A DNA stretch of 7,051 nucleotides from a virus. Taxonomy: Duplodnaviria; Heunggongvirae; Uroviricota; Caudoviricetes. The position numbers and the translations under genes were made by a program. The notes under the pieces are model-generated. The model worked only from the letters and a program-made list of their open reading frames with translations. It ran no database searches and was not told the origin of the DNA. The stretch's first letter is position 1. Each line of letters begins with the position of its first letter. Shown here piece by piece: positions 128 to 6,188 of this stretch. The DNA lies in IMG/VR virus record IMGVR_UViG_2663762857_000014; one strand, given 5' to 3'.

Positions 128-231
128 GTTTACTGACTGCAGGAGTACAAACAGCGTTCTGATGATATCGCGCAATAGTTATTGAATGTGACTATTGCTT
201 CGATTGATCATATCAATTAACAGGAGTTATC

Positions 232-3200
232 ATGGGTAAAGGTGGCGGCAAGGCGCACACACCTCGTGAGGCGAAGGATAATCTCAAATCCACGCAGATG
301 ATGAGCGTGATTGATGCGATTGGTGAGGGACCGATAGAAGGTCCGGTGAAGGGACTGCAGAGTATCCTGGTGAACAAAACCCCGCTGACGGACACGGACG
401 GTAATCCCGTGATACACGGTGTGACGGCGGTCTGGCGCGCCGGGGAGCAGGAGCAGACACCACCGGAAGGCTTTGAGTCCTCCGGAGCTGAAACTGTACT
501 GGGCGTGGAAGTGACGAAGGCAAAACCGGTGACGCGCACCATTACGTCCGCGAACATTGACCGCCTGCGGGTTACCTTCGGGGTGCAGTCACTGGTGCAG
601 ACCACGTCAAAGGGTGACCGAAACCCGACATCCGTCCGCCTGCTGATTCAGTTACAGCGTAACGGTAACTGGGTGACAGAAAAGGATGTCACCATTAACG
701 GCAAGACCACCTCGCAGTTTCTGGCGTCGGTGATTCTGGATAATCTGCCTCCCCGTCCTTTTAACATCCGGATGGTCCGGGAGACGGCGGACAGCACCAC
801 GGACCAGTTGCAGAACAGAACACTCTGGTCATCGTACACCGAAATCATCGATGTGAAACAGTGCTACCCGAACACGGCGATTGTGGGGCTGCAGGTGGAT
901 GCGGAGCAGTTCGGTGGTCAGCAGATGACGGTGAACTACCATATCCGCGGTCGCATCATCCAGGTGCCGTCAAACTATGACCCGGAAAAACGCACCTACA
1001 GCGGTATCTGGGACGGCAGTCTGAAACCGGCATACAGCAACAACCCGGCCTGGTGCCTGTGGGACATGCTGACTCACCCGCGCTACGGGATGGGAAAACG
1101 CCTGGGGGCGGCGGATGTGGACAAGTGGGCGCTGTATGCCATCGGGCAGTACTGCGACCAGACGGTCCCGGATGGTTTCGGGGGCACAGAGCCGCGGATG
1201 ACCTTTAATGCGTACCTGGCACAACAGCGTAAGGCGTGGGACGTTCTCAGTGATTTCTGCTCGGCGATGCGCTGTATGCCGGTATGGAACGGCCAGACGC
1301 TGACGTTCGTTCAGGACCGCCAGTCGGATGTGGTGTGGCCGTACACGAACAGCGATGTGGTGGTGGATGATAACGGCGTGGGGTTCCGCTACAGCTTCAG
1401 TGCCCTGAAGGACCGGCACACGGCGGTGGAGGTGAATTACACCGACCCGCAGAACGGCTGGCAGACCTCCACGGAACTGGTGGAAGACCCGGAAGCCATA
1501 CTGCGCTACGGACGCAACCTGCTGAAGATGGATGCGTTCGGCTGCACCAGTCGCGGTCAGGCCCACCGTGCCGGGCTGTGGGTGATAAAGACAGAACTGC
1601 TGGAAACGCAGACGGTGGATTTCACACTCGGGTCACAGGGGCTGCGTCACACACCGGGTGACATTATTGAAATCTGTGATAACGACTATGCCGGGACTAT
1701 GACCGGCGGACGTATCCTGTCCATTGATGCTGCCACCCGCACCCTGACGCTGGACCGTGAGGTTACCCTGCCGGAGACAGGTACATCGGCGGTGAACCTG
1801 ATTAACGGCAGCGGTAAGCCGGTGAGTGTGGACATCACCGCACACCCCGCGCCGGACCGGATACAGGTCAGTACCCTGCCTGATGGTGTGGAGACATACG
1901 GGGTGTGGGGACTCTCCCTGCCGTCACTGCGCCGTCGCCTGTTCCGCTGTGTCTCCATCCGGGAAAACACGGACGGCACCTTTGCCATCACGGCAGTGCA
2001 GCACGTACCGGAAAAAGAAGCCATTGTGGATAACGGAGCCCGCTTTGAGCCGCAGTCAGGCACCCTGAACAGCGTTATCCCACCGGCAGTGCAGCACCTG
2101 ACGGTGGAGGTGAGCGCAGCTGACGGCCAGTATCTGGCGCTGGCGAAATGGGACACGCCGCGGGTGGTGAAGGGCGTGCGCTTCAGTCTGCGCCTGACCA
2201 GTGGAAGCGGTGAGAACAGCCGCCTGCTGACCACCGCCATCACTGCCGATACGGAGCACCGTTTCAGTGGCCTGCCTCTCGGGGAATACACCCTGACGGT
2301 CAGGGCGATTAACAGCTATGGCCAGCAGGGCGAACCCGCCACCACCACGTTCCGGATTAACGCACCGGCAGCGCCTGCCGGTGTTGAACTGACGCCGGGG
2401 TATTTTCAGATAACGGCGGTACCGCGTCTTGCGGTGTATGACCCGACGGTGCAGTTTGAGTTCTGGTTTTCGGAGGCAAAAATTGCAGACGCCGCACAGG
2501 TGGAAACCTCTGCCCGTTATCTGGGGACCGGCAGTCAGTGGAGTGTCTCCGGCCCGCACATTAAGCCCGGAAAGGATTTCTGGTTTTATGTGCGCAGCGT
2601 CAACCTGGTGGGTAAATCTGCTTTTGTGGAAGCCAGTGGACGGGCGAGCAATGATGCTGCGGGCTATCTGGAACTTTTCCGGGAAAAGATAGGAAAAACG
2701 CATCTGGCAGAGGCGCTGTGGGCAGAGATTGACAACAGTCAGCTGAAGGACGAGATGGCGGAAATGCAGACCACCATCACAGAAACCCGCAATGAAATCA
2801 CACAGACGGTCAGTAAAACGCTGGAGGACCAGAGCGCCACCATACAGCAGATACAGCGCGTGCAGAAGGACACAAATGATGACCTTGCTGCACTTTACAT
2901 GCTGAAGGTACAGAAAACAAAAAATGGCATACCCTATGTTGCCGGTATTGGAGCGGGGATTGAGGATACTGATGGCCAGCCCCTGAGCAACATACTGCTG
3001 CTGGCTGACCGTATTGCGATGATTAACCCGGAGGACGGCAACACCACGCCGTTATTTGTGGCGCAGGGGAATCAGTTGTTCATGAACGATGTGTTCCTGA
3101 AGCGGCTGTTTGCGGTGAGTATCACCTCGTCCGGCAATCCCCCTACGTTCTCCCTGACGCCGGAAGGCAGGCTGACGGCCCGTAATGCGGATATCAGCGG

Positions 3201-3762
3201 ACATATCAGTGCGAACTCGGGCACGCTGAATAATGTCGTGATAGCGGAGAACTGTACCATCAAAGGTACTCTGAGAGCGGAAAATATCATTGGCGATGTG
3301 GTGAAAACGCACAATGTCAGTCTTCCTGATCTCAGGGCTGCAGGGGAGCACAGACACGCGACAGAACGAACGGTTACTGTCATTGATGATCAGTCGTTTG
3401 ACCGGAATATTGTTATCCCGCCGGTTTTTTATTCCGGTATTATCTACAAAGGAAGTGATGGTGACGGTGCGACCTCAATCTGTACGCTGACGGTGAGTGT
3501 GAATGATCGGGTGGTGTTCAGCAAAACCTCATCCATCGGTACCAGGCGTACGTCAGGGGGATACCCCGTTCAGGAAGACACCATATATCCCGGGTCATCC
3601 ACTCCGTTCAGCTATTTCATGAGGATGGCGTCAGGGGGAGGTGATGTCAGGATCAAGTTCCGGATTGAGGTCATCTATTATGGAACTGCACCGGGTTTTA
3701 TGACCACAGGGATACAGATCACAACGATGAAGGCGTCAGCTTCAGGATTTGTGGAAAGTTAA
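232..3762 (+). CDS. J: Lambda J-like central tail fibre / host specificity protein (tail tip), 1176 aa
   Basis: 3531-nt ORF with ATG at 232 and Shine-Dalgarno AGGAG at 223-227 (5-nt spacer). The N-terminus [39 protein letters not shown] and internal stretches ([39 protein letters not shown]; [30 protein letters not shown]; [29 protein letters not shown]; [18 protein letters not shown]) match what I recall of phage lambda gpJ (about 1130 aa). Antisense ORFs across it are explained by its length and GC richness. Confidence 0.95.
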
Positions 3763-4082
3763 TCCCGGACGATCGTGATTGCCGGAAGGAGACAAAAACC
3801 GCACAGTATGCGCGGGTGCCTTTGGCTGATGGCCGGAGGGAACACCTGAAAGCCTGATGTGAAAAGGCCCCGAGTCAACTTCAATGTTAACCCGAGGCCC
3901 TGATCCGTCTATCTTAAGCAAGTGGCAGGTTAGCGCCTCTCCGTAATAAGGAGCAAGTGCTGTGTCGCAAAAACCACCGTGATTTGTATCACTGTAGTGC
4001 TCATTATCTGGATCACCCACCGTTCACTGTGTGAATTCCGGTTCCGGATAGCACCTTTTTAATCCTGTAAACCACGATTTTT

Positions 4083-4118
4083 ACCGCAGACCGGGAAACC
4101 GGCACTGCGGTTTTTTTT
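4083..4118 (+). terminator. Rho-independent terminator: interrupted stem (ACCGCAG / CTGCGGT outer, CCGG / CCGG inner, GAAA tetraloop) followed by T8
   Basis: Read directly: accgcag-a-ccgg-GAAA-ccgg-cact-ctgcggt-tttttttt. The outer arms 4083-4089 and 4105-4111 are exact reverse complements, and the T8 run is 4111-4118. On the opposite strand the hairpin is followed by A-rich sequence, so it is unidirectional. It ends 13 nt before the Stf start codon. Confidence 0.6.
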
Positions 4119-4131
4119 ATGGGGAAAATCT

Positions 4132-5583
4132 ATGACAGTCAGAATATCGGGCGTGCTGAAGGACGGCACCGGGAAGCCGGTACCGGGATGCACCATTGAA
4201 CTGAAAGCCCTGCGCACCACGGAGACAGTGATTGTCACCACGGTGGCGCAGGGGCAGCCGGGGGAAACCGGCAGTTACAGTTTTGATGTGGAGCCGGGGT
4301 GGTACCGGGTGACGCTGAACACGGAAGGGTACGCCCCGTCGTATGTGGGTGACATTCTGGTGAAGGCGGATTCTGAGCCGGGAACGCTGAATAAATTTCT
4401 GATGGAACAGGATGAGGCGCAGTATTACCCGAAAGCGCTTGCAGAGCTGGAAGTGGTGGCAGCGGAAATCCTGAAGCGTGCTGAAGCGTCGGCGGCGAGT
4501 GCAGAGGAAGCGAAGAAACGGGCAGAGAATGCCCGGGGACCGGCGGGCGAGAAGGGGGACACAGGTCCACAGGGTGCCACAGGGGCACAGGGACCAGCCG
4601 GGGCAACGGGGGCGGTCGGACCAAAAGGTGAGCCGGGGCCAAAGGGAGAACGGGGAGAAACAGGTCCACAGGGACCGAAGGGCGATAAAGGTGACCCGGG
4701 CGGACCGCCGGGGCCGAAAGGTGACACCGGCCCACGTGGAGAGGCCGGACCACCCGGACCACAGGGTCCGGCAGGGCAAAGCGGCCCTAAAGGGGATAAA
4801 GGTGAACCCGGCGCAACAGGTCCGGCAGGTCCCGCAGGCCCTCGGGGAGAAACCGGCCCTGCAGGTCCTGCGGGTCCCGCAGGCAGTGTCGCCAGTGTTC
4901 CGGATGCCAGCACATTACAGAAAGGTGTTGTACAGCTGAGCAGCGATACCAACAGCGATGATGAAACAAAAGCGGCAACCCCAAAGGCTGTGAAAGCGGT
5001 AATGGCAGAAGTGCAGGCAGCAAAAACGAAGGCAGAAGAGGCAGCAACCCGGGCAGCAGTCCCCGGACCGAAGGGGGACAGGGGGGAACCTGGCGCACCT
5101 GGTGCAGTGGGGCCCGCAGGCCCACGGGGACCGGCTGGTGCAGCTGGTCCCAAAGGTGATGCAGGCCCGGCCGGACCCCGGGGTCAAAAAGGTGATACAG
5201 GACCTGCAGGTCCGCAGGGACCAGCTGGCCCGGCAGGCCCACAGGGGGTTGCCGGAAGGGACGGCAATGTTTCCACCGGGAAATATGCGGTTGGTTCTTA
5301 TGTTTTTGGCGTGTCCTCTGTCTATGCTGACGGCGAAGGCTTATTTTCATCAGGGATATATGAAAACATTCAGGGTAGCTCCATTGATCTGATTTCAATA
5401 CAGACAACACAAACAGGCGCATCAACACCAAATCAAATCTGGTTTTTGAAACTGGAGGAGGACATTCCGGGGGTGTGGCGGGCATTTAAACCCGCCGCAT
5501 ATATTGATCTGATGCCAGAAGGAATGCAAGGAGGAAAGAACTCGATGTTTAACTTTATTACTCTTTTCCAGCGGATAGCGTAA
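4132..5583 (+). CDS. stf: Side tail fibre protein (lambda Stf-like N-terminus) with collagen-like Gly-X-Y shaft, 483 aa
   Basis: ATG at 4132 with GGGGA 7-8 nt upstream. The N-terminus [26 protein letters not shown] closely resembles the lambda Stf N-terminus as I recall it ([26 protein letters not shown]). The motif [28 protein letters not shown] (aa 264-291) matches the conserved tail-fibre motif KGIVQLSSATNS...AATPKAVK. Two long G-X-Y runs occupy aa 136-251 and 311-377. A non-repetitive C-terminal domain of about 105 aa follows. Confidence 0.9.
4537..4884 (+). repeat. Collagen-like Gly-X-Y coding repeat block 1 within stf (about 38 triplets, one register break at [12 protein letters not shown])
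   Basis: Translation [116 protein letters not shown]. The DNA is a GC-rich 9-bp-periodic repeat, which explains the long stop-free antisense and out-of-frame ORFs in the track. Confidence 0.9.
5065..5262 (+). repeat. Collagen-like Gly-X-Y coding repeat block 2 within stf (about 22 triplets)
   Basis: Translation [68 protein letters not shown], immediately after the conserved KGVVQLSS...TPKAVK motif and an Ala/Lys-rich linker. Confidence 0.9.
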
Positions 5584-5594
5584 CGAGGTACGGC

Positions 5595-6188
5595 ATGATA
5601 ATAGCGATCAGTGCGGTTAAGGATCCGGTATATACCAGGCAGGGATGTATCAACTGTCTGGTGAAACTCACCGGAGTTGACGAGGAGGAGACGGACTGGC
5701 TTCCGTTTACGGCGACACCAACGGACGAAGCCCCTCATGGAAAAGAACTCTGGCAGGCACTGAACTCAGGTCAATATGGTCAAATCGCGCCGTATACTCA
5801 ACCGGAAGATGCGGTGGAAAAAGCCAGACAACAGAAAATTAATGAGATCAACGCCTGGCGTAATTCGATGGAAGCGGCGAACTACACGTTTGAGCACAAT
5901 GGGCGTAAATGGGACTACGGGAAGTCAACGCAGACGCGTCTTGAGCCGTCGGTGGCGGCAGCGAAAGCGGGGAAACTGCCGGAGGCGTTTTTCTGGACGG
6001 ATGCGGACAATAATGACGTACCGATGGACGCTGAAACACTGATTGCTCTGAGTGCTGCTGCAGAGCAGGCGATGTTTACCAAAGGTCTGGAAATTCATGT
6101 CAGACAGCGCACGATGAAAAAAGAGATTGAAGCGCTGGATGATGCGGAAGCTATACTGGCGTATAAGGTCGGCATGGCTGACAGGTGA
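5595..6188 (+). CDS. Putative tail fibre assembly protein / chaperone (Tfa-like by position), 197 aa
   Basis: ATG at 5595 with GAGG at 5586-5589 (5-nt spacer), 11 nt after the stf stop. Its size and position directly downstream of the side tail fibre gene match lambda tfa and other tail fibre assembly chaperones. I cannot confirm family membership by eye, so the function rests on synteny. Confidence 0.75.
   Translation: MIIAISAVKDPVYTRQGCINCLVKLTGVDEEETDWLPFTATPTDEAPHGKELWQALNSGQYGQIAPYTQPEDAVEKARQQKINEINAWRNSMEAANYTFEHNGRKWDYGKSTQTRLEPSVAAAKAGKLPEAFFWTDADNNDVPMDAETLIALSAAAEQAMFTKGLEIHVRQRTMKKEIEALDDAEAILAYKVGMADR

Follow-up and report, generated by a model that had tools for sequence, protein, structure and literature searches.

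What occupies the interval between the tail tip gene J and the side tail fibre gene stf of this virus, a spacer that appears empty and closes on a terminator just before stf? In the window, by which we mean the whole stretch of 7,051 nucleotides that was analysed, the tail tip/host-specificity protein J (1176 aa, positions 232–3762, plus strand) is encoded upstream of the spacer; E. coli NCTC9112 carries an identical stretch, in which it is annotated as gpJ. The TAA stop codon of J is at 3760–3762 and the stf ATG is at 4132, leaving a J–stf interval of 370 bp (3763–4131). The stf gene with its ribosome-binding site GGGGA at 4121–4125 (4121–5583, plus strand) encodes a protein of 483 aa with collagen-like repeats, which matched Pfam PF08400 (phage_tail_N, 141.9 bits), Collagen and Phage_fiber_2. 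The corresponding protein of NCTC9112 has 517 aa, so identity with that genome does not extend over the entire window. Downstream of stf, a gene in the tail-fibre-assembly (tfa) position (5595–6188, plus strand) encodes an annotated DUF4376 protein (PF14301, 76.8 bits).

Open reading frames on the plus strand between J and stf were at most 27 aa long, and 3763–4131 contained no intact ORF, as the earlier note on this DNA had claimed. The sole long ORF of the spacer is located on the minus strand (3742–4020, 92 aa); it showed a marginal match to a PHROG of unknown function (E = 0.0019) and no match in a Pfam search, and its frame is not preserved among relatives. This ORF and the other small ORFs were rejected as genes because they had no credible family matches in Pfam or PHROG. 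We consider the J–stf spacer, with a probability of about 0.9, to be a degraded hok/sok-family type I toxin–antitoxin cassette. No new type of element is involved; the spacer holds the remains of an ordinary gene.

The toxin part of this cassette was recognised from one frame of the spacer that holds ...KTTVICITVVLIIWITHRSLCEFRFRIAPF, which is Hok/Gef-like. Positions 3979–4062 (plus strand, frame +1) encode MICITVVLIIWITHRSLCEFRFRIAPF, an out-of-frame remnant of 27 codons that begins at an internal GTG, contains the Hok transmembrane region and the SLCEFRFR motif, and ends in a foreign tail, APF. The remnant scored 25.9 bits against Pfam HOK_GEF (PF01848; cut-off 22) while covering only positions 9–30 of the 42 in the profile, and intact relatives scored 41 bits over positions 8–42. 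It also matched PHROG 251, of the "moron" category, with an E value of 2.8e-10. The description of the interval as ORF-free thus stands as far as intact genes are concerned, but it overlooks a frame whose Hok remnant lies above the Pfam cut-off. The Shine–Dalgarno sequence of hok, AAGGAG, is found at 3948–3953 (plus strand) and is conserved in relatives, where it stands 8–9 nt upstream of the Hok ATG. A GTG ORF at 3957–4034 (stop codon to 4037) is present behind the same AAGGAG, and the earlier note was right to doubt that it is a gene. The true hok start position is 3962, which is ATG in relatives.

When 5426 complete E. coli genomes were searched by blastn with positions 3700–4200, 1762 of them gave a match, and a single genome had up to 11; NCTC9112 and LZSFT34 were 99.6–100% identical over this stretch. 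In 123 E. coli genomes the match covered at least 80% of the query, and there the matching gene sits between gpJ and a "prophage tail fiber N-terminal domain" protein and is annotated as a "Hok/Gef family protein". An intact version occupies this J–stf position in about 120 E. coli genomes and about 40 viral contigs, and about 200 Stx phages match at approximately 80% identity directly downstream of lom. No specific description of a hok at the J–stf site emerged from the literature that was searched. The hok/sok family is already known and its relatives are annotated automatically, and the window copy is filed as a new, degenerate member.

The homology has sharp boundaries. Its left edge is at the −35 element (about 3776–3779), whether the upstream sequence is a J allele (39–100% identity) or lom, and its right edge in the J–stf class is the terminator. 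Sharp edges together with an own promoter, presumably an active one, and an own terminator between phage genes are the signature of a moron.

The putative hok promoter (3779–3807, plus strand) consists of a −35 element TTGCCG (3779–3784), a 17-nt spacer and a −10 element CACAGT (3802–3807); it is located where the homology starts and fits an mRNA 5′ end at 3814. The hok leader (3814–3973, plus strand) matched Rfam RF01794 ("sok") over the full length of the model (1–157) with 32.5 bits and an E value of 1.7e-4, below the gathering score of 59, and this was the only meaningful match of a permissive Rfam scan. Intact relatives reached 35–51 bits against RF01794, also under the gathering score (51.1 bits and E = 2.8e-9 for locus L003). 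The NCBIfam Hok models were likewise matched well under their cut-offs, indicating a divergent subfamily. From the Rfam start, the terminator and the alignments, the remnant hok mRNA would extend over 3814–4118 (plus strand), 305 nt as compared with 416–419 nt in intact relatives.

Closure of the mRNA by pairing of its 5′ and 3′ regions is typical of hok mRNAs, as in the system of plasmid R1. The intact mRNA of strain 317 (416 nt, beginning with GGGUGCC and ending in the U-run) had a folding energy of −187 kcal/mol (z = −8.8), and its nucleotides 1–21 were predicted to pair with GGUGGUCAGCCGGAUGGCACC near the 3′ end. This closure was retained when 29 distinct intact sequences were folded jointly with RNAalifold. 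No covariation was found in the closure helices of these 29 relatives, in which the helices are nearly invariant, so that the support for closure is thermodynamic and by analogy. In the 305-nt RNA of the window the closure was lost (z = −2.8) because the 103-bp deletion described below removes the pairing partner. A mok-like frame crossing the hok start was absent from the window and from 23 of the 29 intact relatives, and in this respect the subfamily departs from the R1 paradigm; we took mok to be typical of the hok/sok family but not to define it.

Within the leader, the minus strand carries a Sok-like antisense RNA gene of about 60 nt (3861–3921) with a 5′ tail, a 16-bp hairpin (3901–3864) and a U4 tract at 3865–3862. 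It folds with −29.1 kcal/mol (z = −4.3) and is homologous to the 80-nt precursor of 24B_1, an RNA of phage phi24B. Its putative promoter (3927–3956, minus strand) has a −35 element TTGCTC (3956–3951), an 18-nt spacer and a −10 element TAACCT (3932–3927), a weak match to the consensus (6 of 12). A promoter scan called neither this promoter nor that of hok, both of which match the sigma-70 consensus poorly. The promoter block AGGTTAGCGCCTCTC(C/T)GTAA was invariant in 29 distinct relatives, all loci having been retrieved with that motif, and the Sok-like promoter may be active. Opposite the Sok-like 5′ tail, the leader forms a hypervariable hairpin (3900–3929, plus strand) with the loop CUUAAGCAA. 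All four counted stem pairs of this hairpin were changed on both sides among the 29 relatives (35 cells; none of 500 shuffles reached that), and the hairpin is presumably the recognition site of the antisense RNA. Its lower stem is imperfect in the window copy. Judging from the sequence, both the antisense RNA gene and the terminator of the window appear structurally intact.

The state of the antisense gene bears on a reading that we regard as unlikely but deserving of consideration, namely that the toxin was lost and that the locus persists as an orphan gene for a Sok-like, 24B_1-like small RNA with a terminator, acting in trans. The targets of such an RNA would be either related hok mRNAs from co-resident prophages or other molecules. 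The antisense promoter block, the 16-bp hairpin and the U-tract are intact, and the query gave matches at 8 places in NCTC9112 and at up to 11 in other genomes. Phage phi24B expresses the homologous RNA, and 24B_1 has been reported to have effects in trans (PMC4426718, PMC10732415). However, nothing indicated that the antisense gene was under selection once the toxin had been lost, a point for which only two decayed lineages were available, and the stem of the target-side hairpin is degraded in the window copy. Moreover, the segment comprising the Sok tail and hairpin is only 70% identical between the window and other J–stf copies, and such hypervariability of the tail argues for specificity and against cross-reaction.

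The spacer ends in an intrinsic terminator (4083–4118, plus strand), with the sequence ACCGCAG-A-CCGG-GAAA-CCGG-CA-CTGCGGT followed by a T-run. Its stem of 7 + 4 bp is formed by 4083–4089 with 4105–4111 and by 4091–4094 with 4099–4102, around a GAAA loop at 4095–4098. The T8 tract occupies 4111–4118, of which T4111 pairs with A4083 and closes the stem, and 13 nt (4119–4131) separate it from the stf ATG. Positions 4070–4125 (56 nt) folded with −22.8 kcal/mol, compared with −11.4 ± 2.4 kcal/mol for shuffled sequences (z = −4.8; none of 200 as good). The hairpin and T-run are kept in essentially all J–hok–stf relatives, 13–14 nt before the stf start. The coordinates and the fold agree with the GAAA-looped, T8 terminator proposed in the earlier note. 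A simple terminator scan missed this plus-strand terminator because a 1 × 2 internal loop breaks its stem rule, and the call rests on folding and conservation, the result of the scanner being negative. The terminator would mark where the transcript of the cassette itself ends. It would also stop unmodified transcription entering stf and so insulate stf in the lysogen, while late Q-modified transcription would be expected to pass it, by analogy with lambda.

The position of the terminator could also suggest that regulation of stf is the main role of this spacer, with the hairpin and T-run controlling tail-fibre expression and the hok homology being incidental, a reading that we consider improbable. 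The terminator and the stf N-terminus always occur together in the J–hok–stf class, with 86–100% protein identity, and the lom-type hok loci are without this terminator. Nevertheless, the hairpin sits where the hok mRNA needs its 3′ end, and the resulting mRNA length of about 416 nt is near that of the hok mRNA of plasmid R1, which is roughly 400 nt. The cassette accounts in full for the remainder of the spacer, and no covarying or alternative structure ties the hairpin to the stf ribosome-binding site.

For the toxin–antitoxin cassette, the intact form would begin immediately after J with a promoter of its own, end immediately before stf with its own terminator, and yield an mRNA of about 416 nt that codes for a Hok/Gef-family membrane toxin of 46 aa. 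Following the standard logic of hok/sok systems, this mRNA would be stable, folded back and translationally inert, and would end at the intrinsic terminator. A short antisense RNA made from within the leader would block expression of the toxin, and the toxin would be made once the antisense RNA is lost.

The window copy was compared with the intact copies of strain 317, strain FHI_NMBU_10 and phage 1720a-02, which served as references for the lesions and encode MSQKPLKTTVICITVVLIIWITHSSLCEFRFRIAGAEIAAFLQCKQ (46 aa). The residual start of hok (3962–3982, plus strand) is a GTG in the window, whereas 51 of 52 intact copies have ATG, and it is followed by the remainder of MSQKPP (translated as VSQKPP) and a stop codon. 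A deletion of 10 bp (AAAAACCGTT) between two AAAAACC repeats, at 3969–3975, causes a frameshift. A second deletion, of 103 bp, has its junction at 4044–4052 (plus strand) between the repeats CCGGATAGC and CCGGATGGC (CCGGAT(A/G)GC), as placed by the alignments and by folds of the intact and window mRNAs. It removed the last 15 Hok codons, a hairpin of the 3′ UTR and most of the 3′ fold-back partner, of which GCACC at 4051–4055 survives. In addition, the putative −10 element of hok is CACAGT (3802) in the window and TACAGT in all relatives, and one base of the terminator stem is altered from G to A at 4090 relative to the intact copies. No intact toxin frame of about 46–52 codons was present behind the Shine–Dalgarno sequence in the window. 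With an early stop codon, a 10-bp frameshift and the last 15 codons lost, the window copy is a pseudogene and not a working member of the family.

A conserved 20-mer retrieved 62 viral contigs, among which 59 loci had complete coverage. Full-length Hok was encoded in 52 of the 59; the other 7 were decayed, all in the J–stf context, and 4 of these 7, the window included, share this exact double deletion. The long form occurs in these 52 loci, recurs in the divergent lom-type subfamily and spans the whole Pfam domain, so the gaps in the window are deletions and not insertions elsewhere. Sequence comparison thus makes the long form the ancestral one. Strain M1 has the 103-bp gap without the 10-bp gap, which indicates that decay was stepwise. 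Both deletions probably arose by replication slippage between short direct repeats. Together with the ATG-to-GTG change and the −10 substitution, they have taken away most of the fold-back partner and would have disabled the toxin. The full toxin could then not be made from the window copy, the mRNA would be without closure, and toxicity was probably lost.

That a shortened toxin is still made from this copy, termination and reinitiation yielding the 27-aa product with its membrane helix, is very unlikely. The 6-codon leader (GTG at 3962 to TGA at 3980–3982) does overlap the GTG at 3979 as GTGA, the peptide retains the hydrophobic segment and the SLCEF motif, and PGAP names the 27-aa product of strain M1 a "Hok/Gef family protein"; other type I toxins are equally short. 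Against this, GTG 3979 is the ancestral Val-10 codon, and the conserved C-terminal third of the domain (profile positions 31–42) is absent. For Gef, toxicity has reportedly been assigned to the periplasmic C-terminal portion of the protein. The start codon, the −10 element and the fold-back element are also damaged, which is a pattern of decay and not of remodelling.

Lambda carries lom between J and stf, and in Stx phages lom lies directly upstream of the homologous hok-like locus, so that lom and the cassette can adjoin; nevertheless, the proposal that deletion of a lom-like moron left the spacer as a scar, with only the terminator remaining, is almost certainly wrong, because only 16 nt separate the J stop codon from the −35 element of the cassette, tblastn with Lom (the phage phi346 protein, 99–100% identical to the Lom of most lom-type loci searched) gave no match in the window while detecting lom in 22 other loci, every part of 3776–4131 aligns to hok/sok-type loci, and the terminator follows the hok fold-back element in about 40 loci without lom. 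What holds of the relic proposed in the earlier note is that a moron was degraded and that its terminator survives; the moron is of the hok/sok type and not lom. It was also not reduced to its terminator, as the promoter, the leader, the antisense gene, the Shine–Dalgarno sequence and most of the toxin ORF are still present. The earlier note had set a conserved regulatory region against a deletion remnant, and both hold, since a conserved cassette is damaged by deletions in the window copy.

The cassette was compared with known systems. Like the hok/sok system of plasmid R1 and the hok loci on E. coli chromosomes, it has a small membrane toxin that carries the conserved SLCE motif and a long structured leader containing the antisense gene, the −35 element of which overlaps the Shine–Dalgarno region of the toxin. 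An mRNA of about 400 nt with pairing between its 5′ and 3′ regions and a terminal hairpin terminator is also shared, as is the frequent decay of chromosomal copies. It differs in its shorter toxin (46 aa), which scores under the NCBIfam Hok cut-offs, in a leader under the Rfam gathering score and in having no conserved mok frame; the window itself has in addition suffered deletions of the toxin ORF and the fold-back partner. The intact J–hok–stf cassettes of strain 317, FHI_NMBU_10 and phage 1720a-02 agree with the window in position, promoter, leader, Shine–Dalgarno sequence, terminator and stf junction, with 84–96% identity per segment outside the antisense region, but they keep the ATG and the 10 bp and 103 bp that the window lost. 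With the lom and bor morons of lambda the cassette has in common that an additional gene, equipped with a promoter and a terminator to itself, lies between conserved late genes and would be expressed independently of the late operon. In contrast to those morons, its cargo is a toxin–antitoxin pair and not an outer-membrane protein, and it has no sequence relation to lom.

The locus between lom and vb_24B_43 in Stx phages (phi24B, 933W and Sp5/VT2-Sakai) is about 80% identical to the window at the DNA level from the −10 element to the deletion junction. It shares the antisense promoter and hairpin and encodes an intact 46-aa Hok-family ORF, but it is located after lom in short-tailed Stx phages and is without the terminator–stf junction. 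The phi24B and 933W records annotate no gene there, and the literature describes the locus only as one for a microRNA-like small RNA. No second annotated hok was found in the first 22 kb of 933W, and a motif scan gave only the lom-adjacent one. In the hokW–sokW system of Sakai prophage 5, induction leads to loss of the antitoxin RNA, and phage release is aided by the system (Takada et al. 2021, PMC8621323). Identity of our locus with hokW–sokW was rejected, because the latter is a different paralogue: HokW, with 51 aa, starts with MKQQKAM (primer YO-357), the hokW leader opens with GCGGGTGCTTGAGG, and hokW is not the locus adjacent to lom (PMC8621323). The label "MokW-like" stems only from PHROG 251.

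A separate observation concerns 24B_1, a 20-nt RNA of "microRNA size" from phage phi24B, which falls within the Sok-like hairpin of the homologous locus, where no gene is annotated. It corresponds to residues 45711–45692 of HM208303 and reads UAACGUUAAGUUGACUCGGG (PMC4426718), a sequence that makes up the loop and 3′ arm of this hairpin in the lom-adjacent homologue. Its counterpart in the window is the 21-mer UAACAUUGAAGUUGACUCGGG (3869–3889, minus strand), which differs in the alignment by one substitution and one inserted base. The 80-nt precursor was detected in phi24B by RT-PCR and small-RNA sequencing, and a promoter, p24B_1, was predicted with a −10 element CGCTAACCT and a −35 element TTGACT (PMC4426718). 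This promoter is the same element as the Sok-like antisense promoter. An intact but unannotated 46-aa Hok-family ORF lies 73 nt from 24B_1 on the opposite strand of phi24B, and the 189-bp deletion of 24B_1 in that phage takes out the hok promoter and leader as well. Hok is not mentioned in the research papers on 24B_1 that were consulted, and the single review containing both terms deals with hok and 24B_1 in separate sections.

For the window, an empty spacer with a stray terminator receives an ordinary explanation as a decayed toxin–antitoxin moron. More generally, the J–stf junction of lambdoid prophages is a common home of a divergent hok/sok subfamily, which annotation pipelines often miss or label "hypothetical". 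The position of the much-cited "bacterial microRNA" 24B_1 in the antisense hairpin of an unannotated member of this subfamily also offers a simpler framework for its origin. If the locus does act as an orphan small RNA gene, 24B_1 would be a fragment of a type I antitoxin RNA, and the phenotypes of the phi24B deletion mutant would need to be read again, because the deletion also removes the promoter and leader of hok.

The 24B_1 RNA of phage phi24B was published as a 20-nt 'microRNA-size' RNA with an 80-nt precursor (PMC4426718). Sequence comparison placed 24B_1 and its precursor at the position of the Sok-like antisense hairpin and promoter in a hok-family locus downstream of lom, which is unannotated in phi24B (L072; HM208303 45553-45980). 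Within this locus, 24B_1 lies at 159..140 on the minus strand and the Hok ORF at 232-372, and the homologue of 24B_1 in the window lies at 3889..3869, also on the minus strand. No mention of hok was found in the research papers on 24B_1 that were consulted. The phi24B 24B_1 deletion mutant had 189 bp removed (PMC4426718). The hok promoter and leader were also lost in this published mutant.

The antisense segment of the window (3860-3926) was compared with the intact relative L003 and the Stx-phage locus L005. This segment showed 81% identity to the lom-type Stx-phage loci versus 70% to other J-stf copies, whereas all other segments of the window cassette were nearest to J-stf copies (84-96% identity), which suggests recombination inside the cassette. 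A terminator-like hairpin, CCGCGCATACTGTGCGG followed by TTTTT, was located on the minus strand at 3815..3799, about 45 nt past the Sok-like U-run, where it overlaps the putative hok -10 and +1. Its 7-bp stem was free of mismatches only in the window, owing to the T-to-C change that also weakens the hok -10; in relatives the stem carried a mismatch.

In the lom-type Stx-phage loci (L005, L069 and L072), no hairpin-plus-T-run terminator was found downstream of the fold-back element, which argues that the 3' end of the predicted hok mRNA must be formed there by other means than in the J-stf class. An ORF (L0129 in 933W) begins about 20 nt after the fold-back element in lom-type loci, and the terminator-like GACGCCTGCCTTAAAAAGCAGGCGTTTTGTTTTG sits within it.

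A 10-bp deletion in the window hok produced a 6-codon mini-ORF (3962-3982), the TGA stop of which overlaps, as GTGA, the internal GTG (3979-3981) heading the 27-codon Hok remnant. This overlap could permit reinitiation on the remnant; it is probably an accident. In the plasmid R1 paradigm a mok frame overlaps hok, whereas no conserved mok reading frame overlapping hok was found among 29 intact sequences of this hok subfamily, L003 included. The putative antisense RNA would pair on the 5' side of the hok SD, at a distance of about 27 nt or greater.

E. coli NCTC9112 was identical to the window across the J-stf spacer. However, the side tail fibre has 483 aa in the window (4132-5583) versus 517 aa in NCTC9112 (L071 6884-8437), and on this sequence difference the window derives from another prophage copy, though a close relative. 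The length polymorphism is probably in collagen-like Gly-X-Y repeats.

The leader hairpin opposite the 5' tail of the Sok-like antisense RNA (window 3900-3929; columns 100-117 of alignment A4) was hypervariable from copy to copy. All four counted stem pairs showed compensatory changes in this alignment, and the loop start C/U-U-N-A was kept. Up to 11 places per genome matched the cassette. The variation of the leader hairpin looks like antisense-target specificity diversifying among co-resident copies.
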